Source: a virus
Taxonomy: Duplodnaviria > Caudoviricetes
Virus record (IMG/VR): IMGVR_UViG_2758568729_000001
Coordinates: 32,001 to 96,000 of that record
Direction: 5' to 3' (one strand)
DNA length: 64,000 nucleotides
Both the position numbers and the translations under genes were made by a program. Positions 1,761 to 19,087 of the stretch are shown here, piece by piece. Each line of letters starts with the position of its first letter. Position 1 is the first letter of the stretch. The notes under the pieces are model-generated. The model made no database searches, was not told the origin of the DNA, and saw only the letters and a list, made by a program, of their open reading frames with translations.

Positions 1761-1832
1761 GCCGGGGATCATGTCATGAACCGGTTGGGAAAGCAATTAG
1801 CCAACATGTTCCCATCATGTTTGCCAACCTGG

Positions 1833-1873
1833 TTGACATGGCCCAACGCAGCCCGTAACTTGGTAGATGTAAG
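1833..1873 (+). promoter_or_regulatory. Early promoter TTGACA-17-TAACTT with single conserved box AACTTGGTAGATGT
   Basis: TTGACA 1833-1838, TAACTT 1856-1861, box starts 1857. Confidence 0.8.
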
Positions 1874-1934
1874 GCGAACGGCCACGGCCGGTGCTACCAA
1901 CACCACCGAGGCCCTGATCGGGAGAGGCCCCGAT

Positions 1935-2630
1935 ATGAGCAGCACCACCAGCACCACCAGCCGGCGGATCTTCGGCGCGCTCACCATCACCGCACAGATC
2001 ACCATTGACGGCGGCTACACCATCAACGTCTTAACCGGCCCGATCCGCGAGCACGAGCTGTTCTTCTCCACCAAGGACCGAGACCTGTACCGCCGCGTCT
2101 ACGCCGTCATCCGCGAAGGCGGACGCAAAGGGGTCACGCCGGCCGGTATCCACGCCGCCGTGGTCGACGCCCTCACCGACGACCTGCACGCCGCCCGCCG
2201 CAACCGGGACGGGCGCCGGATCGAGTTGCTGAACCAGGCGCTCGACCGGCTCGAAACCCAGGCCCAGCGGAAGGCGAACCAGGAGCTTATCGGCGGCATC
2301 CGCGCCAACATGCAGGCGGCTGCCGCCGGCAACCCTCGTGTCGACGAGCCGAACGCGCTCGAAACCCTGGCTGCGCAGGGCACCCGCTCGGTGACTCCGC
2401 CGACCCGGGGCGGCGCCGAGTACACCCCGGCGTCCGACCCCGGCATGAAGGTCATCCGCGCGGCCAAGGCCAACGGCGGCACCATCGCCCGAGGCCAGAG
2501 CGCCAGCATCACCCAGCTCCACGCCCTGGAGCGGCGGGGCCTGATGACCCTCACCCGCCGGCCCGGTACGGCGATCGTCACCTCCGGCACCCTCACCGGC
2601 CCCGGCTGGCAGACCCCGGTCGGTGCCTGA
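1935..2630 (+). CDS. Hypothetical early protein with C-terminal winged-helix-like segment
   Basis: RBS GGAGAGG before ATG 1935; C-terminal ITQLHALERRGLMTL...LTGPGW. Confidence 0.65.
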   Translation: MSSTTSTTSRRIFGALTITAQITIDGGYTINVLTGPIREHELFFSTKDRDLYRRVYAVIREGGRKGVTPAGIHAAVVDALTDDLHAARRNRDGRRIELLNQALDRLETQAQRKANQELIGGIRANMQAAAAGNPRVDEPNALETLAAQGTRSVTPPTRGGAEYTPASDPGMKVIRAAKANGGTIARGQSASITQLHALERRGLMTLTRRPGTAIVTSGTLTGPGWQTPVGA

Positions 2631-2791
2631 TGGCCGCCGACCAGCAGACCAACCCGCTCGACGACCTGTACCGCGAGTTCCTGGAAGCGGACGACGACGG
2701 CGCGAGCAGCAACGACATCGCGCAGATGCTCGACGACTTCCTCACCAAGCGCGGTTACCCGACCGTCCTGTACCGGGCCGGTCGACGGTGA
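2630..2791 (+). CDS. Small acidic hypothetical protein (53 aa)
   Basis: TGATG coupling; MAADQQTNPLDDLYREFLEADDDG...; high-GC codon usage. Confidence 0.55.
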   Translation: MAADQQTNPLDDLYREFLEADDDGASSNDIAQMLDDFLTKRGYPTVLYRAGRR

Positions 2792-2988
2792 GCGCCGGGA
2801 AGCCGGCGAAGGACCCGGCGGAAGACCCGGCGGACCGGCTCGACAGGCAGATGACCGAGGCCGTGGATCACATCCGGCAGATGCTCGCCAAGCTCGCCCG
2901 CCCGGTCGACGTGTCGTACGGCTACGACGCCGACGGGGCGTTCCGGGCCGACAGCAGCCCCACGAACGGCCCCACCACCGAGCAGTAA
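2788..2988 (+). CDS. Small acidic peptide, paralog A1
   Basis: GTGA overlap; C-terminus VSYGYDADGAFRADSSPTNGPT similar to 3264-3431. Confidence 0.6.
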   Translation: MSAGKPAKDPAEDPADRLDRQMTEAVDHIRQMLAKLARPVDVSYGYDADGAFRADSSPTNGPTTEQ

Positions 2989-3075
2989 CCCGCTCCCGGT
3001 CGGGCCGTCCACAAGGCGGCGGCCCGGCCCGCACTACCAAACCCAACCCATTCCACTCGCAAGAGGAGCACGGCC

Positions 3076-3264
3076 ATGACCCGCACCGACACGATCGCCC
3101 GCCGCGCCGCCCGCACCGTCACCCGCACCAACCGGCGCCGCAACGTCCAGATCCCCGCCGACGACCGGTACCCGAACCTCCGCCCGCAGCGCCTCGACCG
3201 GCCCAGCCGGCACAGCGCCAACACGGTCGCCATCCAGGCGTCGCTGTACGGGGTCACCGCCTGA
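3076..3264 (+). CDS. Arg-rich small protein, paralog B1
   Basis: RBS GAGGAG; shares NRRR..Q...DR..NLRPQ.L.RP.R motif with 3522-3713. Confidence 0.7.
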   Translation: MTRTDTIARRAARTVTRTNRRRNVQIPADDRYPNLRPQRLDRPSRHSANTVAIQASLYGVTA

Positions 3265-3431
3265 TGGACGACACCGCCCCCGATCCGGTACCGGCCGAGA
3301 TCGCGGACGCGGTGGCGGATGAACTCACCGCCCTCGGCGACCTCCTCGCCCCGCCCGTTTCGTACGGCTACGACACCGAGGACACGTACCGGGCCGACAC
3401 CAGCCCGACCACCGGCCCCACCCAGGAGTAA
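3264..3431 (+). CDS. Small acidic peptide, paralog A2
   Basis: TGATG coupling; ends PVSYGYDTEDTYRADTSPTTGPTQE. Confidence 0.6.
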   Translation: MDDTAPDPVPAEIADAVADELTALGDLLAPPVSYGYDTEDTYRADTSPTTGPTQE

Positions 3432-3521
3432 CGACCTCCGGTCGGGCCGCCGCCTACGGGACGGCCCGGCCCGCACTACCCGAACCCAAACCCAGAGCAC
3501 AACCACGTCAAGGAGCACGCC

Positions 3522-3713
3522 ATGAACACCGTCATCGTCACCCCGGCCGACCGCCGCACCAACCGAATCGACGCCCGCAGCAACCGGCGCCGCCGGATCC
3601 AGCCCACCAACGACCGGCACGCGAACCTCCGCCCGCAGCCGCTCAACCGGCCGGCCCGCCGTAACACCGCCGCCGCCGCGATCGCGGAGTCGCTGAACGG
3701 GGTCACAGTCTGA
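3522..3713 (+). CDS. Arg-rich small protein, paralog B2
   Basis: RBS AAGGAG; paralog of 3076-3264. Confidence 0.7.
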   Translation: MNTVIVTPADRRTNRIDARSNRRRRIQPTNDRHANLRPQPLNRPARRNTAAAAIAESLNGVTV

Positions 3714-4186
3714 TGGGCGAGCTCAACATGGACGCCATCGCGCGGCTCAACGACGACGTTCAGCAGTGGGCCGCCGACCGGCTCCGGGCCGGCGAGTTCA
3801 CCGACCGGATGGCGTCCATGTTCGACGCGGCGATCGGGTGGCGGGTCGAGCGGCGGGACTGCTGCGACCGGTGGGGGATCGACGTTGACTCCGCCGCGAG
3901 GACCGCCCTGCGGGCCGAGCTGGCGGAGGAGAAGGCCGACATGTACGGCAACGGGACCCTGCTGATCCTGCCGGACGGGCACGAGCTGTACGCCCGGCAC
4001 CGGTCCCAGGGAGCGCGGGCGTTGGCCGCCGCCGAGTACCGGGCGTCCATGACGGCCGCGCCGGCGCCCCGCCGCTGGTCACTCACCGAGCTTGCCGTGT
4101 CGGCGACCAGCGTGGCCGCGTACACGACCTTGGTGTTCCTGGTCGGCGCCGCCTCCATGTTGATCGCCCTCGGCTACCAGCCCTGA
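3713..4186 (+). CDS. Hypothetical protein with C-terminal transmembrane helix
   Basis: TGATG coupling; hydrophobic C-terminus. Confidence 0.6.
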   Translation: MGELNMDAIARLNDDVQQWAADRLRAGEFTDRMASMFDAAIGWRVERRDCCDRWGIDVDSAARTALRAELAEEKADMYGNGTLLILPDGHELYARHRSQGARALAAAEYRASMTAAPAPRRWSLTELAVSATSVAAYTTLVFLVGAASMLIALGYQP

Positions 4187-4328
4187 GCCTGCCGGTAAGC
4201 CTGCGGGGCCGGAACCAGCACGCCCGGCCCAAGCAGGGTCACCGCAGACCAGACCGGGGCGCGGCCCATGCCCTGAGAAGCCGGCCGCGCCCCGCCCGTT
4301 CCCTCCCGCAGGAAGGAGAAACCCCATC

Positions 4329-4469
4329 ATGTCCGACGCCCAGCTTCGCCGGCAGTCCGAGTACGTACGGGCCCGCGCCCGTGACGCCCGCCTGGCGCAG
4401 ATGGCCGAAGCGCAACGGCAGGCCGACGAGCGCAACGCCGCCAGGGCCGCCGCCGCGACGACCACCTGA
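4329..4469 (+). CDS. Small helical hypothetical protein (46 aa)
   Basis: RBS AGGAG; MSDAQLRRQSEYVRARARDARLAQMAE... Confidence 0.5.
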   Translation: MSDAQLRRQSEYVRARARDARLAQMAEAQRQADERNAARAAAATTT

Positions 4470-4590
4470 CCGTGCGTGGGGGCGGCCCCGCCTGCGAAGC
4501 GAGCCGCCCCCACTGAACCCCAACCACAGGATTCACCCCGCCGGGTGCTCGAACACCGAGGCGGGTCGACCAGCCCGAAGGAGGCTGACC

Positions 4591-4767
4591 ATGTCGAACA
4601 GTTTCGCAGACCAGCACGCCGCGTGGCAGGAGCAGACCGCTGTCGCGCGGCAGACCGGCACCGAAGCGGACCGGGCCGAGGCCGAACGGCTGCGGCAGGA
4701 AGTCGTCGCCAGCCCGGCCGTGCAGCGCGCCCGCAAGGCGACCGACGCCCGTCCGGTGCGCTCGTAA
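4591..4767 (+). CDS. Small hypothetical protein (58 aa)
   Basis: RBS AGGAGG before ATG 4591. Confidence 0.55.
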   Translation: MSNSFADQHAAWQEQTAVARQTGTEADRAEAERLRQEVVASPAVQRARKATDARPVRS

Positions 4768-4862
4768 CCCGCACCCATATCGGTGCACCCCCATGTGGCC
4801 GCGCACGTCGGCATGCTCGCCGCCGCGCTCGGGGGTGAGGGCACATCGAGCTGTAGTGACTG

Positions 4863-4893
4863 GCCCCCGAGGTGATTCTCGGGGGCTTCTCTT
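4863..4893 (+). terminator. Intrinsic terminator
   Basis: GCCCCCGAG-loop-CTCGGGGGC followed by TTCTCTTT. Confidence 0.7.
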
Positions 4894-4899
4894 TGGACA

Positions 4900-4956
4900 A
4901 ACTTGGTAGATGTTCTGTCGTTCAGTCGGTCAAACTGGTAACTTGGTAGATGTAAG
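4900..4956 (+). promoter_or_regulatory. Paired-box promoter (boxes 4900 and 4940)
   Basis: AACTTGGTAGATGT twice, 40 bp apart; second box preceded by T, giving -10 TAACTT. Confidence 0.85.
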
Positions 4957-4982
4957 GATTGTCGAGCGGCAAGGAGCGGGGC

Positions 4983-5381
4983 ATGTTCACCGAAGACGAC
5001 ATCATCCACCGGTACACCCGGGCGCAGGCCCTCGCCGACGGCACCCTGATCGACGCCGGACCGCTCGCACGAGAGGCCGGCTTCCGCTGGCCGGTCGCAC
5101 TCACCGCCGCCGCCTGGGCCGACTGCGTCGCCTGGACCGACGCCGATAACAAGCGCAAGGGCGCCATCCAGGACGAGACCGGTCGCCTGTGGGACGTCCT
5201 CAACATGGCCCGCTTCGCCGCCGCCCGCAGCGGCGGCGGCAACCGGATTCTGTTCCAACTCGTGCGGGTACCAGTCGCCGGCAAGGCCACCCGTCCCCGG
5301 CTGGTGACCCTCGCCCTGATGGCTGGCCCCGGTGACAACGGTGAGCCGGTCATGGTCATCGGCACCCCCGACGAGGACTGA
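4983..5381 (+). CDS. DUF6573-like protein
   Basis: IHRYTRAQALADGTLID...EAGFRWPVALTAAAW..CV...QDETGRLWDVL...GPGDNGEPV signature. Confidence 0.7.
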   Translation: MFTEDDIIHRYTRAQALADGTLIDAGPLAREAGFRWPVALTAAAWADCVAWTDADNKRKGAIQDETGRLWDVLNMARFAAARSGGGNRILFQLVRVPVAGKATRPRLVTLALMAGPGDNGEPVMVIGTPDED

Positions 5382-5384
5382 CCG

Positions 5385-6188
5385 ATGACCACCGACACCG
5401 CCGCCGCGCCGTACGTCACCGCCCTTACTGCTGCCGCCCTACCGGACTGGCTCCGCTGGCGGGTCGAGATCCGACCCCGGCGCCGCAGCCTCGGGATCAT
5501 CACCGAGCCTGGTGGCCAGGTCGTGATCGCCATCCCGCCGGGCGTGGACCCGCAACGGGTGGTCGCCGTGGTGCAAGCCAGCCTTGCTCAGCTACGCCGG
5601 CACGTGCGCGACAGCGAAGAGAGCGCCCTACGTCGCCCGGTCAAGGAACTGGTGAACGGCGAAGGGTTCCCCCTCCTGGGTGCGAACCACCGCCTGCGGC
5701 TCGTGGGCGACGCGGATATGCCGATCGTCGGCGAGCCGGGGCCGTCGACCTGGAGCGGCGTCCGGACCCGGCAACTGACCCTCCGTCGAGACGCGGCCAG
5801 CGCCGCCACCATCGTCGGCTGGTACCAGGCGCAGGGTCAGGCGTTCGCCGACCGGTACGCCCCGGAGATGGCCGCCCGCCTGGGTGTCGCCGACGGGCTG
5901 ACGGTGCGGGTACGCGGCTACCGGCCCGGCCAAGGCGTCGCGAGCTGGGGCACGTATCGCCCACGTACGCACAGCATTTCGCTCCACTGGTCCCTGTTCC
6001 AGCTTCCCCGGGAGATGCCCGAAGCGGTGCTGGCGCACGAGGTGGCGCACGCCGCCCGGCCGAGCGGAGGGCCGCACGGCCGGGGGTGGGAACGCCTGTT
6101 CGTGCGACTCGTACCCGAGTGGCGGGAGCGTGCGCGGGAGTTGGAGCTGGCTGCCCGATCGATGTGGTTCGGTGACGTAGCCCCCTGA
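5385..6188 (+). CDS. YgjP/DUF45 (M48/SprT-like) zinc metalloprotein
   Basis: NGEGFPLLG, SWGTY, ISLHWSLFQLP, VLAHEVAH (HExxH), H...W...VPEWRE. Confidence 0.8.
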   Translation: MTTDTAAAPYVTALTAAALPDWLRWRVEIRPRRRSLGIITEPGGQVVIAIPPGVDPQRVVAVVQASLAQLRRHVRDSEESALRRPVKELVNGEGFPLLGANHRLRLVGDADMPIVGEPGPSTWSGVRTRQLTLRRDAASAATIVGWYQAQGQAFADRYAPEMAARLGVADGLTVRVRGYRPGQGVASWGTYRPRTHSISLHWSLFQLPREMPEAVLAHEVAHAARPSGGPHGRGWERLFVRLVPEWRERARELELAARSMWFGDVAP

Positions 6189-6195
6189 CTCGATG

Positions 6196-6223
6196 GCCCC
6201 CGGGTGTCACCGGGGGCTTTCTT
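6196..6223 (+). terminator. Intrinsic terminator
   Basis: GCCCCCGG-loop-CCGGGGGC then TTTCTT. Confidence 0.7.
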
Positions 6224-6230
6224 GTGCCCG

Positions 6231-6287
6231 AACTTGGTAGATGTTCTGGCGGTAGCAAGGGAGATGCGGTAACTTGATAGATGTAAG
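6231..6287 (+). promoter_or_regulatory. Paired-box promoter (boxes 6231 and 6271)
   Basis: AACTTGGTAGATGT / AACTTGATAGATGT, 40 bp apart. Confidence 0.85.
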
Positions 6288-6313
6288 AGCTACCGAGCGC
6301 CACGGAGGCACGG

Positions 6314-7351
6314 ATGACCACCACGACGACCGAGCGAGTCACCCCCACCAGCAGCCCCGTCGAAATCGACACCCACCTCCACCGCCTCTACATCCGGGAG
6401 ATGCAGGCCACCCAGCGCCTCATGGCCGCGAACATCAGCCTCCACCGCGCCAACGGCGAAACCCCCGTGCACCTCGGCCGCCGGCAGGAATGGCCCACCA
6501 GCGACGCCGACGCGCTCGCCGCGTGCCGCGCCAAGGTCGCCGCCCCCGACTACAAGGAGGTCCCCTGGGGTTCCTCTCCCACCAAGGCCATCGCCGCTCT
6601 CACCGCCGCCACCGCCGACCTAGCCGCGATCGAAGCTGAAGCCGCGTCCCTCGAAGCGGAATGGGTCCGCCGGGGGCGCTGGACGCGGTACTTCACGGTG
6701 CAGCAGCACGACGGGCATATCCACTCCAGCATGAACTGTTCGACCTGCAACCGGGGCATGTCCGCCACCCGGTTCACCTGGAACCCGGACCTGTCCGGTC
6801 TGACCGAAGCGGAGGCGGTCGCCAAGCTTGGCCCGAATCTGTGCACCGTGTGTTTCCCCTCGGCCCCAGTGGAGTGGACGAGGGGCGCCGACACCGACGC
6901 CGTCGCCCTGGCCGATGGGTGGTGCCTCAACCGGGTGCCGACAGACAGCAACTACAACACCCACCGCCCGTACGGCCGCTGCAACGACTGCGACGCGCGG
7001 AACGTCCCCCTTACCCAGCAAGGGCTCCGCAAGCACAAGCACGAGCGGAACCTGACCGAGGCCGCCCGCAAGGCTCGACGCGAGGACCCGAAGCTGATCG
7101 GAACCCCGGAGGGGGACGAACTGCGGGTCGACCGCGAAACGATCAAAACGGTCGTCGCCGCGAAGAACCGCTACGTGTGGCACATGGAGTGGGTGCTGAC
7201 CAGCCGCAACCCGGCGTTCGCCGCCGACCACGCGAAGCACGCCGCGACGATCGCCGAGGCCCTGGCCGCGAAGCTCGGCAAGCGGGTGGACGAGATCCGG
7301 GCGGAGTTGCAGCCCCGCGTCACCAAGATGTTGAAGGCGTACGGCCGATGA
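6314..7351 (+). CDS. Cys/His-rich putative zinc-binding phage protein
   Basis: HIHSSMNCSTC...LCTVCFPSAP; second CxxC; RBS GGAGG. Confidence 0.7.
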   Translation: MTTTTTERVTPTSSPVEIDTHLHRLYIREMQATQRLMAANISLHRANGETPVHLGRRQEWPTSDADALAACRAKVAAPDYKEVPWGSSPTKAIAALTAATADLAAIEAEAASLEAEWVRRGRWTRYFTVQQHDGHIHSSMNCSTCNRGMSATRFTWNPDLSGLTEAEAVAKLGPNLCTVCFPSAPVEWTRGADTDAVALADGWCLNRVPTDSNYNTHRPYGRCNDCDARNVPLTQQGLRKHKHERNLTEAARKARREDPKLIGTPEGDELRVDRETIKTVVAAKNRYVWHMEWVLTSRNPAFAADHAKHAATIAEALAAKLGKRVDEIRAELQPRVTKMLKAYGR

Positions 7352-8436
7352 GCCCGGCCGCGGTGGGGGTGCTCGACCGCCCCCACCGGCCCGGCCTGCC
7401 CCCGGAGACCGGCGACGAAGCGGCCGACCTCGCCGCGTTCCTCGCATGGGAAGCCGACGAGCGGGAAGCCAGCAGGGCAGCCGCCGCCGAGTACCACCGG
7501 GAGTTGCGCCGCAAGTACGGGCTACGACCCGAACCGGCGACCATGAGCACCGAGTGGGGCGAGCTGACCAACCCCACCATCGACCGCGACGACCCGGCCC
7601 GCCGGCTGACTTACTACCTCGGTGCCCACCACCCGAGCTGGCTGAACTACTCCCCGGTGCCGTTGTTCATCTCCGCCGCGTCCCTCGCCCGGTACCGCAC
7701 CACCGGCGACAGGTGGCCTGTCCGGATGGGGATGACCTGGGCGCTCGACTCCGGCGCGTTCACCGCGCTCACCCCGGCCGGGATCGCCAAGGGCGACGCC
7801 CCGTGGTGGCAACACCCCGACGAGTACGGCGGCATGGCCACACGGTTCGCAGAGGAAGTCGGCCCGCCGGACTTCTGCGCGCCGCAGGACTGGCCGTGTG
7901 AGCCACCCGTACGGGAGCGGACCGGGATGACGGTCCGCGAGCACCAGCAGCTCACCCTGGACAACTTCCTGTACCTGCGGGAGGAGTTCTACTTCCTGCC
8001 CTGGATCCCGGTGTTGCAGGGTTGGGAGGCGGACGAGTACCTGGAGCATGCCGAGATGTACGAGGCCGCCGGGGTCGACCTGGCCGCCGCGTACCGGGTG
8101 GGTGTTGGGTCGATCTGCCGGCGCGGGCATGTCCCGTCGATCGTGCGGGTGATCGAGCAGTTCGCGTCGCGCGGGTACCGAATGCATGGTTTCGGGGTCA
8201 AGGTGACTGCGTTGCCGCTGATTGGTCACCTGTTCGCGTCGGCGGACTCGATGGCATGGTCGGACACCGCCCGGCGGGACCGGATCCGGCTGCCGGAGTG
8301 CACCCACCGGTCGAAGTCGGGGGAGTTGTCGGACTGCCGGAACTGCTTCCGCTGGGCGTTGAGGTGGCGGGAGCGGGTGTTGGAGTCGTTGCGGTCGGGT
8401 CGTCCCGCCCGGTCGTCGCAGCTCGCGCTGTTCTGA
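7348..8436 (+). CDS. Queuine tRNA-ribosyltransferase-like / DpdA-like base-exchange transglycosylase (DUF7221-like)
   Basis: ATGA coupling; LDSGAFT, APQDWPCEP, PVLQGW, VGVGSICRR, HGFGVK, SADSMAWS, C-terminal C.H...C..C. Confidence 0.8.
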   Translation: MSPAAVGVLDRPHRPGLPPETGDEAADLAAFLAWEADEREASRAAAAEYHRELRRKYGLRPEPATMSTEWGELTNPTIDRDDPARRLTYYLGAHHPSWLNYSPVPLFISAASLARYRTTGDRWPVRMGMTWALDSGAFTALTPAGIAKGDAPWWQHPDEYGGMATRFAEEVGPPDFCAPQDWPCEPPVRERTGMTVREHQQLTLDNFLYLREEFYFLPWIPVLQGWEADEYLEHAEMYEAAGVDLAAAYRVGVGSICRRGHVPSIVRVIEQFASRGYRMHGFGVKVTALPLIGHLFASADSMAWSDTARRDRIRLPECTHRSKSGELSDCRNCFRWALRWRERVLESLRSGRPARSSQLALF

Positions 8437-8440
8437 GCCA

Positions 8441-8494
8441 AACTTGGTAGATGTACTGGCTGTGACTGACCGTTCATGCTAACTTGATAGATAT
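8441..8494 (+). promoter_or_regulatory. Paired-box promoter (boxes 8441 and 8481)
   Basis: AACTTGGTAGATGT / AACTTGATAGATAT, 40 bp apart. Confidence 0.85.
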
Positions 8495-8521
8495 ACGGCG
8501 ACCGAGTTACCGGAGGCACCA

Positions 8522-10992: not shown

Positions 10993-11013
10993 GCCGAAGA
11001 GAGGCAGGACAAC

Positions 11014-11265: not shown

Positions 11266-11383
11266 CCTCGTCAGCGGCTCGACACGGCACCGGCCCGCCG
11301 ATCGGGCTGTACCCGCTCCCCGAGGACATCGACCGCCGGTCGTGATCAACAATGATCCGATCAGTGGAGAGGCCCGGACGACG

Positions 11384-12037
11384 ATGAACACGCCCACCCC
11401 CAGCCCGGCCCAGCTCAGAGCTTTGCTCGCCGCACTGGCCGGCGACCTCGCTGCTATCCAAACTGGTCGAACCACCAGGCGACGACTGGCTGCCAACGGA
11501 TGGCTCGACGGCCCGCACGCCGACTCGGAGATCACCGACGACGGCCGCGATGCAGCTCGGCGCGCATACCCACACGGGTACGCCGACGCCCTCTCCGTTG
11601 ACGAGGTCCCCGCCGAACTCGACCGGATCGTGGAGCCAGGCGAGCAGGCGTACGCGGTGTACAGGTGGAGCCGCGATCACCGGAAGTACGGGATCGCCGC
11701 TGCGGTTGCCGTCTTCGCCAACTACGGCATTGCCGAGGCGTACGCGGTTGCGCGGGAGCTGGTCGTCAGGTCGGTCTGGCGGGACCTGGGACCGGCGCCT
11801 GTTCCTGTGCTGGAGTCGACCCCGACCCCGGAGCCAACCCCGGATCCGGAGCCGGATCCGGACGACACGGTCCGCGTCGCAGGGGAGGGCGACGGTCGGT
11901 ACCGGGTCATCCGTCACGACGCCTCCGGCACCTGGGCCCTGATCGTGGCCGCCGACGTTGATCCCGACTCGACGCGGGGCGCCCGTTGGGTGTCGACACA
12001 CGAGGTCCGGTCGGCTCCGGACAAGGCGCCAGCCTGA
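11384..12037 (+). CDS. Hypothetical protein with N-terminal module paralogous to 8522-10057
   Basis: PSPAQLRALLAALAG...GWLDG...ITDDGRDAARRAYPHGYADAL. Confidence 0.65.
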   Translation: MNTPTPSPAQLRALLAALAGDLAAIQTGRTTRRRLAANGWLDGPHADSEITDDGRDAARRAYPHGYADALSVDEVPAELDRIVEPGEQAYAVYRWSRDHRKYGIAAAVAVFANYGIAEAYAVARELVVRSVWRDLGPAPVPVLESTPTPEPTPDPEPDPDDTVRVAGEGDGRYRVIRHDASGTWALIVAADVDPDSTRGARWVSTHEVRSAPDKAPA

Positions 12038-12093
12038 GCGAGCTGCTGATACCCCGAGGGCCGGATCGCCGACCGTCGGCGCCACACCCAAAA

Positions 12094-12150
12094 AACTTGA
12101 TAGATATTGCCGCCAGCGTGACCTTCCTGCGGTAACTTGGTAGATGTAAG
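12094..12150 (+). promoter_or_regulatory. Paired-box promoter (boxes 12094 and 12134)
   Basis: AACTTGATAGATAT / AACTTGGTAGATGT, 40 bp apart. Confidence 0.85.
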
Positions 12151-12176
12151 TGCTACCGATTTGCGAGGGAGTCACG

Positions 12177-12677
12177 ATGACCGCCAACGACCGCCTCTGG
12201 GCCGCATTCACCGCCTCCCACCCCGCCGAGGCCGCCCTGATCTGGGCCAACGAAACGTCGGCCCGACCCAACGCGCCCCTCGGCTACGCCTACAGCTCCG
12301 TTGCTGTCGCCGACGAAGCCGACACCAACCCCGAGCAGGCGTTGTGCCTCGTCGCCGACTACCTGACCAGCGTCCAGGACCAGACCATCGGCGGGCGCCC
12401 CCTCCGCGACTACCTCCCCCTCAAGCGAGACGAATACCTCGCCTGCCCCGGGCACCGCACGGACAACACCGCCGGCTACGTCATCCGACTCACCGTCGCC
12501 GGGGGAGAGGTCGTCAAGACCCCGGACGGGCGAACCGGCATCGACGCCTTCGCCGTCGAGTGCGAGCCTCACTGGGGCAACTACGACAAGGCGATCAACG
12601 CCGCGTGCGCGCTCACGGATGAGCACACGTACGCCGTCACCGACCGCCTGTACCGGTGCGGTCACCGCTCGTACTGA
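12177..12677 (+). CDS. Hypothetical protein (single-gene cassette)
   Basis: RBS GAGGGAG; lies between a paired-box promoter and a terminator. Confidence 0.65.
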   Translation: MTANDRLWAAFTASHPAEAALIWANETSARPNAPLGYAYSSVAVADEADTNPEQALCLVADYLTSVQDQTIGGRPLRDYLPLKRDEYLACPGHRTDNTAGYVIRLTVAGGEVVKTPDGRTGIDAFAVECEPHWGNYDKAINAACALTDEHTYAVTDRLYRCGHRSY

Positions 12678-12685
12678 GCTGGCTG

Positions 12686-12718
12686 AGAAGGGGGGCCGGG
12701 CTACCTGGCCCCCCTTCT
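12686..12718. terminator. Intrinsic terminator hairpin
   Basis: AGAAGGGGGGCCGG-loop-CTGGCCCCCCTTCT. Confidence 0.7.
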
Positions 12719-12738
12719 GTGCGCCCGACTAGGGGGCA

Positions 12739-12793
12739 AACTCGGTAGATGAGATTGCCGGATCTCTGCCCCATGCCGTAGATTGATAGATAT
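12739..12793 (+). promoter_or_regulatory. Paired-box promoter, degenerate (boxes 12739 and 12780)
   Basis: AACTCGGTAGATGA / AGATTGATAGATAT, 41 bp apart; TTGCCG-18-TAGATT. Confidence 0.75.
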
Positions 12794-12833
12794 GAGGTAG
12801 TCCGACCGACCTAGCGACGAGGAGCCGAACCCT

Positions 12834-13562
12834 GTGACCACAACCAAAACCCACACCGCCGAACATCCCGGACCCATCACCCTGGACGCCCGACTCGCCA
12901 GCGGTGCCATCACCGTAACCGTCGAAGACCGCACCCACGCCGTCATCACCATCGCCACCGCCGACAACGACGGGACCTCGGCCAACGCGGTCAACGCCGC
13001 CCGCATCAACGACAGCGGCACGAAGATCGCGGTCGGCGTCGACACGGCCGGCGGCGGCAGCGGCGGAGTCGTCATCCAAAGCGGCGGTGTCCAGCGGAAC
13101 ATGTTCAACACCGGTGGCGGCGTCATGATCGCCGGGAACAACTACGGGGTGATCTCCACCGGCAACGGGAGCGTTGTCATCGGCGGCGGGGCCGTCGTGA
13201 TCGGCGGCAGCCCGATCTTTATCGAGGCCAAGCTCCCCGTCGGGTCGTCGTTGCTCGCGGAGACGACCGACGCCCGAGTGGAAACGACCGGCAGCCTGGA
13301 CCGGGCACAGGTCCGCACCATGTCCGGGCACATCCGGATCGACGCCGTGACCACCCCGGACCTGCACACCATGTCGGGTCACATCGACATCCGCGCCCTG
13401 TACGGCGACGGCCGGGCCGAAACCATGTCCGGCCGGATCACCGTGGTCGCGGCGGTCGAGTGCGCACTGCGCGCCCGGTCCATGTCGGGCGACATCGAGA
13501 TCTCGGGCGCCCGCGTCGACCTGGACGCCAGCACCATGTCCGGCCGGCTCCGGACCCGTTGA
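12834..13562 (+). CDS. DUF4097-like beta-strand repeat protein
   Basis: Repeated (T/S)MSGxI motifs; Gly/Val-rich beta repeats. Confidence 0.8.
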   Translation: MTTTKTHTAEHPGPITLDARLASGAITVTVEDRTHAVITIATADNDGTSANAVNAARINDSGTKIAVGVDTAGGGSGGVVIQSGGVQRNMFNTGGGVMIAGNNYGVISTGNGSVVIGGGAVVIGGSPIFIEAKLPVGSSLLAETTDARVETTGSLDRAQVRTMSGHIRIDAVTTPDLHTMSGHIDIRALYGDGRAETMSGRITVVAAVECALRARSMSGDIEISGARVDLDASTMSGRLRTR

Positions 13563-13591
13563 CCATCCCACTACTCACCTGAGGAGCTTCC

Positions 13592-13951
13592 ATGACCGAC
13601 CCCAGCGCCCACTGGGCCCCCCCGGGTGACGCCCGCCCACCTGGCAGGGCTGAACTCGCCGCCATGCTCCGCGCCGTCGCCAACCGCGGTGTCCTCACCC
13701 CGGCGATGGGGCGCCCGGAGGTGCTGGCCGGGATCAGGCGTAAGCGCTGGGCCACCACCCCGACGGATGGCACCCCGTCCACGCTCACCGAATTCGGTCA
13801 CCGTGTGACCCGGGGGGCGAATCCCGAGGCGTACGTGGCGGCGGTGCCCGACGAGCAGGTGCAGGCGTGGGCCGGTCTGATCGCTGCGGCCGAACGGGCA
13901 CCGGAGTCGACCGACCCGCCCGCTGATCACCGAGGAGGTGAAGCGCCGTGA
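13592..13951 (+). CDS. Hypothetical protein, divergent member of the 8522/11384 N-terminal family
   Basis: AELAAMLRAVAN...LTEFGHRVTRGANPEAY. Confidence 0.55.
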   Translation: MTDPSAHWAPPGDARPPGRAELAAMLRAVANRGVLTPAMGRPEVLAGIRRKRWATTPTDGTPSTLTEFGHRVTRGANPEAYVAAVPDEQVQAWAGLIAAAERAPESTDPPADHRGGEAP

Positions 13952-14907
13952 CAACCACGTTGACATATCCTGGTCCGGGTATCGCCTACCGCAACCCTGG
14001 ACCCGGAGCCGCCCGCATGCCCGAAGTTCCGTTTCTGACCCGGACCGACCTGGCCGCCATCGGCACAGAGGTATGGGGGGTGCCAGTCACCGAAACCAAG
14101 ATCACCGAGCTGGTTCGGGAATCACGGCCGGGCGGCAAATACGAGGACGACCCGTTCGTGGGGCCGGACTCCTACCTCGGCAACGCCCCCTGGTGGGCCA
14201 AGGGCCGGGGCCGGACGGTCACCGCCTGGTTCAAGCGGCACATGCCACCCCCCGTGGTCGACGCCGAAGCAGTCGCTGCCGAACGGCAACTCGAACTCGC
14301 CGACGTGCTCTGGTTGGAAGATGTCGCCGCGCTCGGCGGCGTACAAGAGAAGACCATCACCGACCACCTCTACCAGTCACAGGAAGAGGTCGGCGGGAAG
14401 CGCGGCGCAGCCAAGAAGCGGGGCAAGTGGGCCGACGACCCGTTCCCGGCACCGGAGGAGAAGCGGGCTGGACGGCGGGTGTACTGGAAGGCGGAGAGGC
14501 GAGACGAGATCCTGGCCTGGTTCGGCCGGCACCCGCGGCGGCAGGTTGGTGACGGAATCGGCGGGCCGAGCGGAATCACCCGGGCGGAGGCGCAGGGGTT
14601 GCAGCCGCCAAAGCCGCCGAAGCCGCCGAAGCCGCCAGTAAATGCGTCCCCACGCGAGTACCTGGATTGGGCGGCTGGCCACGCCCTTGACATCTACCTG
14701 GCCGGCGACACGGCCAGGGCTATCGACTCGTTCGCGGCCGACCTGGTGCAGCACGAGGGAACGACTCACATCGTTGAGGACCCGGAGTTCCGGTCAGCGA
14801 TGGCGGATGCGGCGGCGAAGGGGTGGGAGGCTTTCAAGGCGGCCATGTCTGGATGGCCGCTGCGGAAGCCGTCGGGGCGGTCGTCGAAGCCGCGCGTCAA
14901 GTCCTGA
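13948..14907 (+). CDS. DNA-binding protein with two tandem AlpA/Xis-like domains
   Basis: Two repeats of HTH...GK(Y/W).DDPF..P.......W.......AWF.RH; PKP linker; helical tail. Confidence 0.65.
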   Translation: MTTTLTYPGPGIAYRNPGPGAARMPEVPFLTRTDLAAIGTEVWGVPVTETKITELVRESRPGGKYEDDPFVGPDSYLGNAPWWAKGRGRTVTAWFKRHMPPPVVDAEAVAAERQLELADVLWLEDVAALGGVQEKTITDHLYQSQEEVGGKRGAAKKRGKWADDPFPAPEEKRAGRRVYWKAERRDEILAWFGRHPRRQVGDGIGGPSGITRAEAQGLQPPKPPKPPKPPVNASPREYLDWAAGHALDIYLAGDTARAIDSFAADLVQHEGTTHIVEDPEFRSAMADAAAKGWEAFKAAMSGWPLRKPSGRSSKPRVKS

Positions 14908-14920
14908 AGTCCTGACGGGA

Positions 14921-14948
14921 GCGCCCTCGTGATCGCGGGGGCGTTTTT
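14921..14948 (+). terminator. Intrinsic terminator
   Basis: GCGCCCTCG-loop-CGGGGGCG then TTTTT. Confidence 0.75.
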
Positions 14949-14956
14949 CGTGGCGA

Positions 14957-15013
14957 AACTTGATAGATGTACTAGCGCTTGAGTCCTTCGTGCGGTAACT
15001 TGGTAGATGTAAG
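14957..15013 (+). promoter_or_regulatory. Paired-box promoter (boxes 14957 and 14997)
   Basis: AACTTGATAGATGT / AACTTGGTAGATGT, 40 bp apart. Confidence 0.85.
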
Positions 15014-15044
15014 GCAGTCGGGTTGCCCAACCAAGGAGACGAAG

Positions 15045-15575
15045 ATGACCACCGCCACCACCGCCACCACCTACAGCGGCGCCAACGGCACCACCTTCGA
15101 CCACATCTCCGTCACCGCCCTCACCGAACGCGACGTCGACCGCATGGAACGCGTCGAGTCCGCCCTGTGCCGCTGGGCCCGCGTCACCCCCATGCACCAC
15201 ACCCAGGAGGATGAGATCTGCGGCGTCATCAACGACGCGCTGATCCTCCTGGAGGAGTACGGCACCGGTGCCGTCGAGAACGCCGCAACCCCTGCTGACG
15301 CCACATACGCCGAGGCCGCTGCGTGGGCGACCGTCCGCAAGGTCACCGCGCAGGCCCTTCGGTTCCCGCTCCCGATCCAGCCGACCGAGCAGATCAGTAC
15401 CGAGGAGCGGACCGCCCGCAGCACCGCACACATCCACCGCGCCGGTACCGCGCTCCTCGCCGGCAAGCAGCCCGAGGCCCTGTACTGGCTCGACGCCGCC
15501 GAGGCCGTCGACCCGGCCCGGGACTACGACGGGCTGTACCACCTGGTCGTCACCCCGTGGGCGATCTGCCGGTAA
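15045..15575 (+). CDS. Hypothetical protein with C-terminal helical hairpin shared with next gene
   Basis: RBS AAGGAG; ALLAGKQPEALYWLDAAEAVDPARDYD. Confidence 0.65.
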   Translation: MTTATTATTYSGANGTTFDHISVTALTERDVDRMERVESALCRWARVTPMHHTQEDEICGVINDALILLEEYGTGAVENAATPADATYAEAAAWATVRKVTAQALRFPLPIQPTEQISTEERTARSTAHIHRAGTALLAGKQPEALYWLDAAEAVDPARDYDGLYHLVVTPWAICR

Positions 15576-15609
15576 CCCGCCCGCGTAGAGCAGGAGAGAG
15601 GAGAGCGGC

Positions 15610-16032
15610 ATGCTCACGCTTGTCGAACTGGCCATGGTCGCCCAGGCCGCCGAGGACTACGCGGCCTGCTGGTACGGGCCGCAACCTGCTGCGGTTTTCA
15701 GCCGGTGGGACTGTGAACGGTACGTCTCCGAGGGCTACCTGAAGCACCTCCACCACCGATACAACCTCGACGAGCTGATGGCGGCCGTGGGCGCGCACCT
15801 GGACGCGAACCCCAACATCCTGACCGCCGGCCGGGTGAGTGCCGCCGAACTCGTCGCCCGCGAAACCGAACGTCACAAGCGGGCCGAGGCCGTGCTTGAC
15901 CAGGCCCTGATCGCCTTCAGGGCGGGACGGCGGGCCGAGGGTTTGCGGCTGATCGACGCGGCCGAGGTTGAGGCACCGCTGATGCGCGACTACGACCGGC
16001 TGCGCGCCCGGGTGAACGCCACCAAATCCTGA
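15610..16032 (+). CDS. Hypothetical protein, C-terminus paralogous to 15045-15575
   Basis: AFRAGRRAEGLRLIDAAEVEAPLMRDYD. Confidence 0.65.
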   Translation: MLTLVELAMVAQAAEDYAACWYGPQPAAVFSRWDCERYVSEGYLKHLHHRYNLDELMAAVGAHLDANPNILTAGRVSAAELVARETERHKRAEAVLDQALIAFRAGRRAEGLRLIDAAEVEAPLMRDYDRLRARVNATKS

Positions 16033-16083
16033 CCTGCGCCGGTCCGCCCCCGACCTGCGCCAACCCGACCAAGGGGGACCACC

Positions 16084-16497
16084 ATGCGACCGATCGACCT
16101 CAATGCCCTACCGGGGCCAATACTCCAGGCGGCCGAACGCGCCATCCTCCTCGCCTGGGTCGCCGGTCGCAGCCTCCCCGACGCGATCGAAGCCGCCACC
16201 AAAGCGGTGGTCCGGGACGCCCTCGCCCGCGACATGACCGTGGCCGGCGCGCAGCGGCTCGGGGACATCACCGTGGCGGTCGGCGCCAAGATGCTGGCCA
16301 ATCTCGACCCAACCCACCTGACGAATCGAGGAACCCAAGATGCCCACGACACCGGCAACCCAGAGCGAACTGTTCACCCTGCTCGTCGACAGCAACGCCC
16401 AGGCCATGCGGGACCTGCTCGTACCGGAAGGGTTCACCCCGTACGGCCCGAACCTCCAGCACGACACCACCGGGGTCATGGTCGCGGTCGGGGCTGA
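16084..16497 (+). CDS. Hypothetical protein; true 3' end uncertain (overlaps next gene)
   Basis: RBS AAGGGGG; plausible coding only up to about 16320. Confidence 0.4.
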   Translation: MRPIDLNALPGPILQAAERAILLAWVAGRSLPDAIEAATKAVVRDALARDMTVAGAQRLGDITVAVGAKMLANLDPTHLTNRGTQDAHDTGNPERTVHPARRQQRPGHAGPARTGRVHPVRPEPPARHHRGHGRGRG

Positions 16498-16645
16498 CGG
16501 GTACCGGATCACGTTCGTGAGCGCCGGCACGTGCGGGCAACTCGGTGTTGTGGACCTGCCGCCGTCGACCGGGTACACGGCCGTGCGCGACACGGCGTTG
16601 GCGTTGCACCGGTTCGTGGCCGCCGAGATCGAGGCGGCGGGCTGA
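16340..16645 (+). CDS. Hypothetical protein
   Basis: RBS GAGGA; typical codon usage. Confidence 0.6.
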   Translation: MPTTPATQSELFTLLVDSNAQAMRDLLVPEGFTPYGPNLQHDTTGVMVAVGADGYRITFVSAGTCGQLGVVDLPPSTGYTAVRDTALALHRFVAAEIEAAG

Positions 16646-16704
16646 CCGGCGCGCGGCTGTTGGCCGCGATCGACCCAACCCATCTGATCGACTGAGGAGT
16701 ACCG

Positions 16705-16917
16705 ATGCTCGTTGAGACGTTGCCCGCCGCCCCGCCGGTGACCCCGCTCGTTGTCCACCCGTGCCAGCCGGCCGAGTTGGAGGAGGTGCGGTTGTCGACC
16801 TGCCCGTACGGGTGCAAGGTCATGCGCTGCGCCGGCTGCCAGGGGGAGCATGTCGTGCACATGCCGGCGTACGGGTGCCCGCCGTGGCGGCCGTACGCCG
16901 TGGCGCCCCGCCGGTAG
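16705..16917 (+). CDS. Small Cys/His-rich (zinc-finger-like) protein
   Basis: H.C...CPYGC...CAGC...H...YGC; RBS GAGGAG. Confidence 0.6.
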   Translation: MLVETLPAAPPVTPLVVHPCQPAELEEVRLSTCPYGCKVMRCAGCQGEHVVHMPAYGCPPWRPYAVAPRR

Positions 16918-16944
16918 TTCGGCTGGAAGCGGTCGGATTCCAAA

Positions 16945-17000
16945 AACTCGGTAGATGTATTGCGTTCAGCTTGACGGTACCGTAACTTGATAGATGTAAG
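16945..17000 (+). promoter_or_regulatory. Paired-box promoter (boxes 16945 and 16984)
   Basis: AACTCGGTAGATGT / AACTTGATAGATGT, 39 bp apart; TTGCGT-17-TAACTT. Confidence 0.85.
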
Positions 17001-17025
17001 TGATGCCGAACGCGCGGAGGGCAAG

Positions 17026-17442
17026 ATGGCCACCACACGCACCGCCCCAAAGGCCACCACCGGCACCAAGGCCATCAACACCGCCCTCGACGCCGGGTTC
17101 GAGATCACCGAACACGGCGCGACCAACGGCCGCTACCGCCACCACCTCGTCGCCGCCGACGGACGCGCACTCATCATCGACACCGCACTCGGCACCGGCC
17201 GGTTCCTCAACGCCGAAGGCCGTAGCCGCTCCTACTGGAACGCAAGCTACCTCGGGGCGCGCAGCCTCAAGGCGCTCCGGGAACTGCTCGCCGCCGGAAG
17301 CAAGACCCCAGAGCAGATGCCGGCACAGGCGGCCGAGCAACGCAGCTCCGAACTCACGGACATGCACCTCGCGGCCCTGGACAACGAGCGCCGGCTGCGC
17401 AACGACCTGCGCCGCGAACGCCGCCACTTCTACGGACGCTGA
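17026..17442 (+). CDS. Hypothetical protein
   Basis: RBS GGAGG; first gene after paired-box promoter. Confidence 0.65.
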   Translation: MATTRTAPKATTGTKAINTALDAGFEITEHGATNGRYRHHLVAADGRALIIDTALGTGRFLNAEGRSRSYWNASYLGARSLKALRELLAAGSKTPEQMPAQAAEQRSSELTDMHLAALDNERRLRNDLRRERRHFYGR

Positions 17443-17457
17443 TCAAAACTCCAGAAC

Positions 17458-17558
17458 GGCCCCCGCTCCTGGGGGACTCACCCGGTTGAGGGGTCACAGC
17501 CCCAACCAGTACCGGGGAGACTGCGGACCCCATGTGGTGTCCCTGGGGAGCGGGGGCC
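17458..17558 (+). ncRNA. Candidate structured intergenic RNA (long closing stem with branched interior)
   Basis: 17458-17477 pairs with 17539-17558; internal hairpins. Confidence 0.35.
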
Positions 17559-17590
17559 ACGACCAAGGTCAGCGCAGAGGAGAACCCGAG

Positions 17591-17854
17591 ATGGCCCGCA
17601 AGACCACCGTCCCGACCTGTGGCGACTGCCAGGCCACCAACCAACCGCAGGGCCGCGCCCGGGGCCTCTGCATCGTCTGCTCGCCCCTCACCGTCCTGCA
17701 CCTCAGGCTTGCCGGCGACCAGGCCACCTACTGCGGCCGGAGCATGTACATCGTCACCAACGACCCGGACCAGGACTCCACCATCAACGACCTGGACCAC
17801 AAGGTGAACTGCCCCGACTGCCTGTGGCAGCTTCGGCACCGCCGCAGCCACTGA
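17591..17854 (+). CDS. Zinc-finger-like small protein
   Basis: CGDC, CIVC, H...C...CPDC; RBS GAGGAG. Confidence 0.65.
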   Translation: MARKTTVPTCGDCQATNQPQGRARGLCIVCSPLTVLHLRLAGDQATYCGRSMYIVTNDPDQDSTINDLDHKVNCPDCLWQLRHRRSH

Positions 17855-17880
17855 CCCGACCACCCGCCTGGGAGACCGAG

Positions 17881-18243
17881 ATGACCGACACCGACCGGCC
17901 CATGACGTTCATCGAACGCCAGAAGGAAGCCGCCCTCGACGAGCTGCGTGAGCGGGGCGAGGAACGCCGACGCATCGCGGAAATCGTCCTCGGCAAGAAC
18001 CGCGGCCGGGACCAGGTCACCGAGGTCATCAACCTCAGCGGCGACTACCTGGTGGAGGTCGCCACCCGGGACAGCGGCGTGTACTGGGCGTCCCTCGTTG
18101 GCGGGAAGCGCACCGGCCAGTTCCACGTCCGGCAGGAGGACGCGATTCTCCACCTGATCGCCGCCCGGTACGACCCGAACCCGAACACGAACACCTCGGC
18201 CGCGTTCTACGCCGGCCGGGTCCTCGGCGTCTCCACCGACTGA
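17881..18243 (+). CDS. Hypothetical protein
   Basis: RBS GGGAG; codon usage. Confidence 0.6.
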   Translation: MTDTDRPMTFIERQKEAALDELRERGEERRRIAEIVLGKNRGRDQVTEVINLSGDYLVEVATRDSGVYWASLVGGKRTGQFHVRQEDAILHLIAARYDPNPNTNTSAAFYAGRVLGVSTD

Positions 18244-18257
18244 CGAGGACAGCCAGA

Positions 18258-18572
18258 ATGCCGACCCGACTCGACGCCGCCCGTGAAGCCGCTACCACCG
18301 CCGCGACCAACGCTCTCGCTGGTCGCGGCGTGGAAGCGGTCCTCTGCGACCAGCTCGCAGCCGAGATCGTCGCCGTGCTCCTCATCGCCCGGTCCGAACG
18401 CGGGCTGACGTGGCTGCGCGGGATGCGGGCCACGGCCAGGCAGAACGAGCTGATCAACCGGCACCACACGATCAGCGCCCTGACCCTGTTCGCCACCCGA
18501 ACCGCCCTGCAAGACGCGATGGTTGCCGCCGCTGATGCGCTGGTGGCCGCCCTTGGCCGCCGCACGAACTGA
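18258..18572 (+). CDS. Hypothetical protein
   Basis: RBS GAGGA; operon spacing. Confidence 0.55.
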   Translation: MPTRLDAAREAATTAATNALAGRGVEAVLCDQLAAEIVAVLLIARSERGLTWLRGMRATARQNELINRHHTISALTLFATRTALQDAMVAAADALVAALGRRTN

Positions 18573-18594
18573 CCCGACCGTGAAGGAGACCAGC

Positions 18595-18984
18595 ATGTCC
18601 GACACCCTGACCCTCGCCCTGGCCGCGTACGACGAGGCCGACCCGGACAACCCCGCCGGCCGCCGCGTTCACGCTGCGGCCCTGTTCCGGGAGGCCACCG
18701 GCGCCACCCTCCGTGACTCGCTGGCCGCTGTGGACGAGGTCATCGCGGAGCGGACCACGTTCGAGAACCTGGAGCAGTTCCGGCAGCCCACCACGTTCGG
18801 GTGGCGGTACGAGTTCCCGAACAACCGGATGGTGACGGTCATCAACGACGACACCGCCCCGTTCAGGTTCGAGGTGCTGTCCGACGACCCGGCCGACGTG
18901 GCGACGGGCAACATCCGCCGGGGGCTCACCACCGAGCAGGTGGAGGCAAAGTTGGTGGCGATCTACGGGATGCCGGCGGTCTAG
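18595..18984 (+). CDS. Hypothetical protein
   Basis: RBS AAGGAG. Confidence 0.6.
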   Translation: MSDTLTLALAAYDEADPDNPAGRRVHAAALFREATGATLRDSLAAVDEVIAERTTFENLEQFRQPTTFGWRYEFPNNRMVTVINDDTAPFRFEVLSDDPADVATGNIRRGLTTEQVEAKLVAIYGMPAV

Positions 18985-19003
18985 CCGGGGGAGCGGTTCA
19001 AGG

Positions 19004-19059
19004 AACTTGATAGATGCTCTTGCCTCACGTGGTACGCGTGTGTAACTTGATAGATGTAA
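19004..19059 (+). promoter_or_regulatory. Paired-box promoter (boxes 19004 and 19044)
   Basis: AACTTGATAGATGC / AACTTGATAGATGT, 40 bp apart; TTGCCT-17-TAACTT. Confidence 0.85.
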
Positions 19060-19087
19060 CCGCTACCGAGGTACACCGGAGGACACC

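Follow-up and report, generated by a model that had tools for sequence, protein, structure and literature searches.

Paired copies of a phage-private 14-bp box at putative early promoters of a large actinomycete prophage

Introduction

What does one short sequence do in front of one gene block after another in a phage genome, present twice at most of the promoters and at a fixed distance? The question is raised by a 64,000-nucleotide stretch of viral DNA (IMG/VR record IMGVR_UViG_2758568729_000001, positions 32,001 to 96,000), which is called the window below; positions refer to it unless genome positions are given. An earlier note on this DNA had listed 17 copies of a 14-bp box, one single and the others in eight pairs, and had read them as a regulon in which one element-encoded factor controls ~23 kb of early cargo. 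The window corresponds to positions 8,188,949-8,252,948 of a single 8.74 Mb contig and belongs to a ~154 kb siphovirus prophage (about 8,154,500-8,309,000) in an actinomycete chromosome. In what follows, the upstream member of a pair is referred to as the U box and the downstream member as the D box.

Results

The Box Is Private to the Phage

The box pattern, AACTTGRTAGATGT, was matched 20 times in the window when up to three mismatches were allowed, compared to 1.28 matches expected from shuffled sequences (the largest shuffle count was 5). All 17 boxes of the earlier note were recovered at the positions it had given, all on the plus strand and, by rough gene calls, all intergenic. The spacing within pairs is fixed (40, 40, 40, 40, 41, 40, 39 and 40 bp) and the spacer sequence is free. 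The printed flanks contain a T directly before every D box of the window and before none of its U boxes.

When the whole chromosome was scanned with at most one mismatch, 20 matches were retrieved, all of them within the prophage at positions 8,164,802-8,208,005, and the reversed control pattern gave no match at this threshold. The 11-base core TTG[AG]TAGAT occurs 29 times genome-wide, with 25 occurrences in the prophage, where 0.5 are expected. No match to the motif was found in five other genomes of the genus, and a literature search with the box strings returned only chance matches in eukaryote papers. The motif is private to the phage, and the earlier note had not recognised it as a known host operator; the observation as such is confirmed as real and highly non-random.

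The boxes of the window are only part of the set, since the units continue past it on both sides. Looser scans revealed minus-strand pairs to the left, at genome positions 8164802/842, 8166568/608, 8166813/853 and 8183800/840, and two further pairs to the right, at 8286434/474 and 8299812/852. A lone U box at 8174722 heads a transfer RNA (tRNA) array of 30-plus genes (elsewhere counted as 35). In total, there are 14 pairs and two singles over 135 kb, that is, 30 boxes at 16 promoters, each box co-oriented with the genes downstream.

The layout of the prophage indicates which genes are served. Tail and head genes (Sipho_Gp37, tape measure, capsid) occupy the minus strand at 49-77 kb of the window; DpdA and Mom-family genes lie inside the window as well. 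The right arm carries genes for DnaB, a sliding clamp, a dATP/dGTP pyrophosphohydrolase and a C5 methylase, and a large serine recombinase is encoded at the right end of the prophage. No box units were found in the structural block (8.233-8.274 Mb), and the units therefore mark non-structural, presumably early, genes on three arms; presumably they stand at the start of nearly all early gene blocks of the prophage. The notion of a ~23 kb early cargo thus has to give way to that of an early gene class spread over three arms of a ~154 kb temperate siphovirus prophage. Megablast of window positions 1-20000 against phage records returned no match, and the capsid protein is merely 42-44% identical to Gordonia phage capsids. 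The pyrophosphohydrolase domain protein is encoded beside DnaB (genome 8278003-8279343; L012:5055-6395) and, together with the DpdA and Mom-family genes, points to several routes of DNA base modification within a single phage.

The Boxes Occupy Fixed Positions in a Host-Type Promoter

Each unit consists of a -35 element (T.GC in this genome, TGGACA in relatives), 17 bp and a -10 element of the form TAnnTT. When the last T of the -10 element is set as -7, the D box extends from -11 to +3 and the U box from -51 to -38. Between the end of the U box and the -35, whose position is conserved, there are 2 bp, so the description of the box as stopping just short of the -35 is accurate, and the -10 element consists, as had been proposed, of the T that precedes the D box and the first five box bases.

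Profiles of the 15 U and 15 D boxes of this genome separate the two positions clearly. The base before the box is T in 15/15 D boxes and A, G or C in 14/15 U boxes. Box bases 2 and 3 are variable in D (A11/G4 and C11/A3/T1, respectively) and invariant in U, and box base 5 is T in 15/15 D boxes and T11/C4 in U boxes. No D box departs from the preceding T, the A or the TT, and all 15 fit TAnnTT. Such variation is expected of D if it holds a -10 element TAnnTT, and it rules out a -10 role for the U box. A G and the string TAGAT are invariant in 30/30 boxes. At the -35 position after U, a T, a G and a C recur 17 bp before the -10 element in 13-14 of the 15 units, and the sequence TTGACA-N17-TAACTT is present at three independent promoters that have a D box only.

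Pairwise identity between promoters is 0.855 for U and 0.844 for D, compared with 0.288 for the spacer, 0.329 for the upstream flank and 0.40 for positions +4 to +19; the spacer value is at chance level. The boxes stay alike while spacer and flank drift, which argues that the two boxes, rather than the entire unit, are under selection. U and D boxes of one promoter resemble each other no more than do those of different promoters. Both boxes are AT-rich islands in DNA of 68-70% GC.

Primary-σ promoters are expected to have a -10 element TAnnnT, its A and final T invariant, and a -35 element TTGnnn 16-18 bp upstream, and the units agree with this layout. A generic TATAAT promoter scanner made no calls, because TAACTT matches only 3/6 positions of TATAAT. 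That each unit is a promoter for the host primary-σ RNA polymerase is well supported by these features of the sequence and by the comparison of seven (pro)phages.

Our analysis added a third element, absent from the earlier note. An inverted copy of the 7-base core TYGRTAG, which reads CTACCGA(G), is located in the leader at about +9 to +15, ~9 nt past the D core, and corresponds to the U-type core (CTCGGTAG) in reverse complement. The D arm, TTGRTAG, and the leader arm can form at least 6/7 pairs at a fixed distance in 40/54 units from six prophages, compared with 24% in shuffles. Compensatory changes are absent, however: 20/27 TTGATAG arms retain the partner C, which is a mismatch. A selected hairpin of D and leader was therefore rejected, and the leader copy is read as an inverted recognition site or a sequence motif. 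Immediate-early leaders contain several inverted copies of the core.

The tail of the D box reads ATGTAA (TTGTAA in two relatives), for example at 4950-4955, 6281-6286 and 19054-19059, i.e., a start codon followed by a stop codon. It lies at or beside the transcription start predicted here and might represent a leaderless start-stop mini-ORF.

Three Arrangements of the Boxes

Promoters with a D box only (TTGACA/TTGACC/TTGACG-N17-TAnnTT) head an operon beside a divergent small gene and have orthologues in six relatives. In the window, this class is represented by the immediate-early promoter at 1833-1870 on the plus strand, with the -35 TTGACA at 1833-1838, 17 bp, the -10 TAACTT at 1856-1861 and the D box at 1857-1870. 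As previously noted, it lacks a U box and is the sole site of the window with TTGACA. The tRNA array is headed by a U-only promoter, which consists of U, TTGCGT, 17 bp and TACCGT in this genome and of U, TTGCTA, 17 bp and TACGGT in a related prophage of Micromonospora sp. NPDC006766 (G362). Conservation of this promoter argues that U acts on its own. The remaining units have both boxes, with a decayed U in a few units of relatives.

The D box lies over the start site, where a repressor would act. The earlier proposal that the upstream box activates and the -10 box represses fits the conserved U-only and D-only promoters, which are also what control depending on box position would lead one to expect.

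The immediate-early leader (positions 1871-1934, ggccggtGCTACCAACACC ... gatcgggagaggcccc ATG) is kept in all relatives, at the same place in L033-L038, and includes an inverted core copy (GCTACCAA on the plus strand) at 1894-1900 on the minus strand. The first gene after it is strongly diverged among relatives. The leader may be a regulatory one.

The Same Unit in Related Prophages

A search of 400 genomes of the family with the strict paired pattern gave one other match, G362, in which the boxes are restricted to 166-212 kb of one contig and belong to a prophage syntenic with the one studied here, in inverted orientation. Through homologues of an 81-amino-acid protein, encoded divergently from the immediate-early promoter, further loci were reached in Micromonospora sp. 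WMMD737, Verrucosispora sp. WMMC514 and M. lupini, as well as in two assembled read sets; in one related-locus search with this protein, only G362 matched. A pattern scan of IMG/VR showed that a 112 kb provirus (G401) carries the unit too. The same unit is present in all relatives found, that is, in six related Micromonosporaceae (pro)phages, or seven with the prophage described here.

The consensus of 54 units from six prophages runs in the order U (aa.TtggtagatgT), 2 bp, -35 (TgGac), 17 bp, -10 (TAacTT), D (G.TAGatGTAA), leader motif (gCTAcCGAg; GCTACCGAG) and ribosome-binding site. An extra conserved motif, (g)gAACACGCCGGG, is found ~5-20 bp upstream of many U boxes in L034-L037 and G362; it was not seen in this genome.

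Units of the Window and Their Genes

All units of the window are on the plus strand. The unit at 4900-4953 (U 4900-4913, D 4940-4953) heads DUF6573 and YgjP-like peptidase genes. The next one, at 6231-6296, with U at 6231-6244, D at 6271-6284 and the inverted CTACCGA at 6290-6296, heads a 345-amino-acid gene and the DpdA gene (7348-8436). A 511-amino-acid gene and the Mom-family gene (about 10054-10992) follow the unit at 8441-8494 (U 8441-8454, D 8481-8494). Further downstream is the unit at 12094-12159 (U 12094-12107, D 12134-12147, inverted core 12153-12159). The most degenerate unit, at 12739-12793, has the 41 bp spacing, the boxes AACTCGGTAGATGA (U) and AGATTGATAGATAT (D) and the -10 TAGATT, and heads DUF4097 and a conserved putative helix-turn-helix (HTH) gene at 13948-14907. 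It is followed by units at 14957-15010 (U 14957-14970, D 14997-15010) and 16945-16997 (39 bp spacing; U 16945-16958, an AACTC variant, and D 16984-16997). The last unit, at 19004-19069 (U 19004-19017, D 19044-19057, inverted core 19063-19069), stands in front of a long operon, which extends to about 25098.

Terminator-like hairpins precede four of the pairs, as had been noted, two being called by the scanner and two by eye. The scanner called terminator-like hairpins at 4862-4887, before unit 4900, and at 6195-6218, before unit 6231. A GC-rich hairpin at about 12691-12714, before unit 12739, was seen by eye and not called by the scanner, and a GC-rich hairpin with a T5 run at about 14921-14948, before unit 14957, was likewise seen by eye; all four are on the plus strand.

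The earlier note had also suggested that the boxes could serve as recombination points. Cassette exchange at the units is plausible. In G362, the units at 209847 and 211977 share a stretch of 72 bp without a difference, which opens one base ahead of U and closes with the leader motif; their flanks are unrelated. These two units (L028:9847-9960 and 11977-12090) bracket a ~2 kb cassette with a DpdA orthologue, a gene that is located on a different arm in our prophage. This is a single case.

Candidate Readers of the Box

As to the one element-encoded factor proposed, none of the four candidates named in the earlier note could be tied to the boxes. The putative HTH protein encoded at 13948-14907 (plus strand, 319 amino acids, with a tandem duplicated module) has homologues in G362, G401, L035 and L037. 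Its likeness to HTH_17/MerR comes from weak Atlas leads only, and the HTH_17 assignment was dropped after Pfam and PDB sequence searches gave no match. A connection between the module duplication and the identity of U and D was ruled out, since G362 has a single module. The Cro/C1-type HTH protein of 410 amino acids encoded at 34546-35778 (plus strand) is present in all three complete prophages. Both proteins are conserved, yet no link to the boxes was found for either. The XRE protein, proposed as 25449-26849 and extending to 26855, was rejected as a box reader since it lacks a homologue in G362, where the boxes are the same.

The fourth candidate (proposed as 1515-1760) is the 81-amino-acid protein encoded at 1518-1760 on the minus strand. 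Its model (predicted local distance difference test score, pLDDT, 86) consists of one long helix and two short C-terminal helices, with weak Fis-like matches, and its gene looks leaderless, with a -10 element (CATGAT) 6-7 nt before the ATG. GCCAAC repeats (1800-1829) separate the two divergent promoters; in relatives, a palindrome CCAAC-NN-GTTGG overlaps the -35 element of the 81-amino-acid gene promoter. We set this protein aside because its fold suggests a dimer and the palindrome adjoins its gene: a small dimeric HTH-like protein better suits the nearby palindrome. Its putative recognition region is, moreover, the same in L035, whose boxes differ. The repeats are a probable operator of a separate switch, and the protein is more likely a part of that switch (1518-1832). 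Directly after this gene, at 813-1430 on the minus strand, a 206-amino-acid protein is encoded, in which a replication-initiator-like winged helix is fused to an HNH nuclease.

One more candidate reader is the 231-amino-acid product of the first immediate-early gene (1935-2630, plus strand), whose residues 162-231 (nucleotides 2418-2627) form a winged helix. The AlphaFold2 (AF2) model has a pLDDT of 90, and VIA-align gave a best Z of 8.3, with nearly all rows being MarR-type winged-helix DNA binders over residues 162-231. A hidden Markov model of the winged helix matches only this prophage and G362, the two that have a D-like U (TAGATGT), the others having the U sequence TAGAAGT; the domain was not found in G401, G402 or loci L034-L038. 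The protein may thus be considered an interesting lead that draws on two genomes. It is made of two domains that are fused here. G362 encodes them in separate genes (L027:7189-7734 and 6710-7036, minus strand), both of which have a D-only promoter of their own, and in other relatives the N-terminal domain alone is found at that place.

The right arm of the prophage contains a gene for a WhiB-like (Wbl) protein (genome 8289463-8289740, L012; about 100.5 kb right of the window start), which is present in all three complete prophages, with 77% identity in G401 and 64% in G362. The phage protein is devoid of an AT-hook, and in its C-terminal half it barely differs from a host paralogue of the WhiB/WhiB2 type at 3,048,199; a WhiB7-like host paralogue does have an AT-hook. 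A search of 8.15-8.31 Mb for σ region 4 (PF08281, E up to 0.1) gave no match; other σ models were not searched.

Discussion

How can a box that recurs at -45 and at -5 of the same promoter be explained? The explanation that we favour, with modest confidence, is that the units are early promoters with sites for a phage-encoded regulator, the operator being formed by D and the inverted copy, and U having a helper or activating part. A phage-encoded DNA-binding protein would read the 7-base core TYGRTAG. Bound at D and the inverted copy, it would cover the -10 element and the start site and shut the promoter, in the lysogen and/or when the early genes turn off. Bound at U beside the -35 element, it would either stabilise repression, through contacts between proteins four helical turns apart, or help the polymerase. 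Promoters with D only and a consensus -35 would make up an immediate-early class, those with U and D would serve the bulk of the early genes, and the U-only promoter would serve the tRNA array. The repeated units would also provide patches of homology for swaps of gene cassettes.

Several observations weigh against this explanation. No box-binding protein was identified among the prophage candidates compared. The centres of the D and inverted arms are ~16-17 bp apart, an unusual distance for a simple HTH dimer. Strict co-variation of U and D is missing: four relatives combine the U sequence TAGAAGT with the D sequence TAGATGT or TAGTTGT, and L035 keeps D but has lost GGTAG from U, so that two different readers are possible. 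The -35 element of relatives is near consensus (TGGACA), and activation is therefore not obviously needed. Finally, the conservation of D may need no other reason than that it holds the -10 and start region of a strong promoter.

This last point is central to an unlikely alternative that does without a dedicated regulator: U would be an AT-rich UP-like element, D the -10 and initiation region of a very strong early promoter, and the two would be alike merely by descent from a duplicated unit. The AT-richness of both boxes, the copying of whole units as blocks and the different look of U and D in L035 are consistent with it. Yet an invariant G and TAGAT in every box of this genome, next to spacers that have drifted to chance, argue against it. 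The U box keeps an AAC that it does not need and loses the T of the -10 element, as if conserved as a sequence rather than for AT-richness, and the lack of extra likeness between U and D of one promoter speaks against simple homogenisation. A somewhat less probable alternative makes U the docking site of a σ-bound Wbl activator of phage or host, with D being read by something else or by nothing. The 2 bp distance between U and -35 suits such an activator, as do the right-arm Wbl gene with its conservation and the observation that, across relatives and with L035 included, U is best preserved at its end next to the -35 (GAAGT-CG-TGGAC). However, the phage protein, lacking an AT-hook, resembles in its C-terminus the WhiB/WhiB2 type, which is better known for control of cell division, and the identity of U and D in two genomes would be left unexplained.

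Action at the RNA level seems improbable. In read-through transcripts, D and the leader would pair as a hairpin of 7 bp (UUGGUAG...CUACCGA); alternatively, the leader sequence GCUACCGAG would be a signal for translation or stability. The inverted repeat is indeed enriched, and the leader motif has a fixed place between start site and ribosome-binding site. Against this stand the mismatched arms described above, the fact that a transcript from the unit's own promoter lacks the 5′ arm, the location of U upstream of the start site, and the absence of Rfam matches in window positions 1-26000. Least credible of all is that the boxes are promoters for a phage-encoded σ factor or RNA polymerase. Repeated phage-private promoter motifs are often read in this way, and AACTT resembles some -35 motifs of extracytoplasmic function (ECF) σ factors. 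The search for σ region 4 in the prophage region was negative, however, and the D-only promoters show perfect primary-σ geometry. The ECF reading, with AACTT as -35, was rejected since no conserved ECF-type -10 follows U at the right distance. What looks like a "-10" after D, CCGA, belongs to the inverted core and is too near the ribosome-binding site.

An extension of the favoured reading, in which a regulator binds D with its inverted copy, is that a single phage protein reads the 7-base core wherever it stands in the unit, in direct orientation at about -45 and again at about -5, and inverted at about +12, its position alone setting the sign of control. We regard it as possible but rather doubtful.

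Position-dependent dual regulators are not without precedent among phages. P2 Cox, 186 Apl and phi29 p4 belong here, and Cox and Apl read same-orientation repeats. The lambda CI protein at OR/PRM is another example (PMC1874639). In the model proposed here, as in these switches, one protein may repress over the core promoter and help when it abuts the -35 element; unlike these switches, which involve one or two promoters, the layout is repeated at 16 promoters, and no Cox- or CI-type reader was identified. Stoperators of Cluster A mycobacteriophages are scattered along both arms and block elongation (PMC9283540, PMC6550527). Like them, the boxes are ~30 asymmetric phage-private sites of 13-14 bp, oriented with transcription and located in short intergenic gaps. 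Unlike stoperators, they occur only at -51 to -38 and -11 to +3, in 40-bp pairs, with none in the structural block, and L5 gp71, used as a single query against this genome at E up to 10, gave no match. At WhiB7-dependent actinobacterial promoters, an AT-rich motif is found immediately upstream of a primary-σ -35 element (PMC3905903). The U box is similarly placed, in a prophage that encodes a Wbl protein, but it is a 14-bp sequence-specific box and the Wbl protein has no AT-hook.

With respect to gene exchange, the closest parallel is provided by the PeSL (promoter early stem-loop) cassettes of the T4-type phages RB49 and phi1, in which a terminator stem-loop is joined to a strong early promoter and copies recombine, shuffling cassettes (Arbiol et al. 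2010, PMC2839356). In our prophage, repeated stem-loops and host-type early promoters are likewise found between accessory early genes (DpdA, Mom, DUF6573 and peptidase genes), with 4/8 pairs of the window following a hairpin. The identical G362 units around the DpdA cassette, as one case, resemble what has been reported for PeSL. The doubled box at -45 and -5 and the inverted leader core are not part of PeSL as described, and the host and phage group are unrelated. The system is a variant of phage early-promoter/operator regulons and PeSL-like cassettes, distinguished by the doubled box with a third, inverted copy. In the literature searched, we did not find a unit with a box at -45, another at the -10/start region and an inverted leader copy, which at least seven large Micromonosporaceae prophages share.

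Conclusions

Repeated phage-private promoter units are already known. What the present set offers is a testable model for the timing of early genes, DNA-modification genes and a full tRNA set among them, in a 154 kb temperate actinophage, as well as an actinophage counterpart of PeSL-mediated cassette shuffling. The units may also serve as compact portable promoters, probably switchable, for high-GC actinomycetes. If a single protein does act at the three places, one factor would create three timing classes, with D-only promoters being shut first, promoters with U and D giving a pulse and the U-only promoter of the 35-gene tRNA array staying on, and this positional logic would have been copied at 16 promoters and kept across a lineage of large actinomycete phages.

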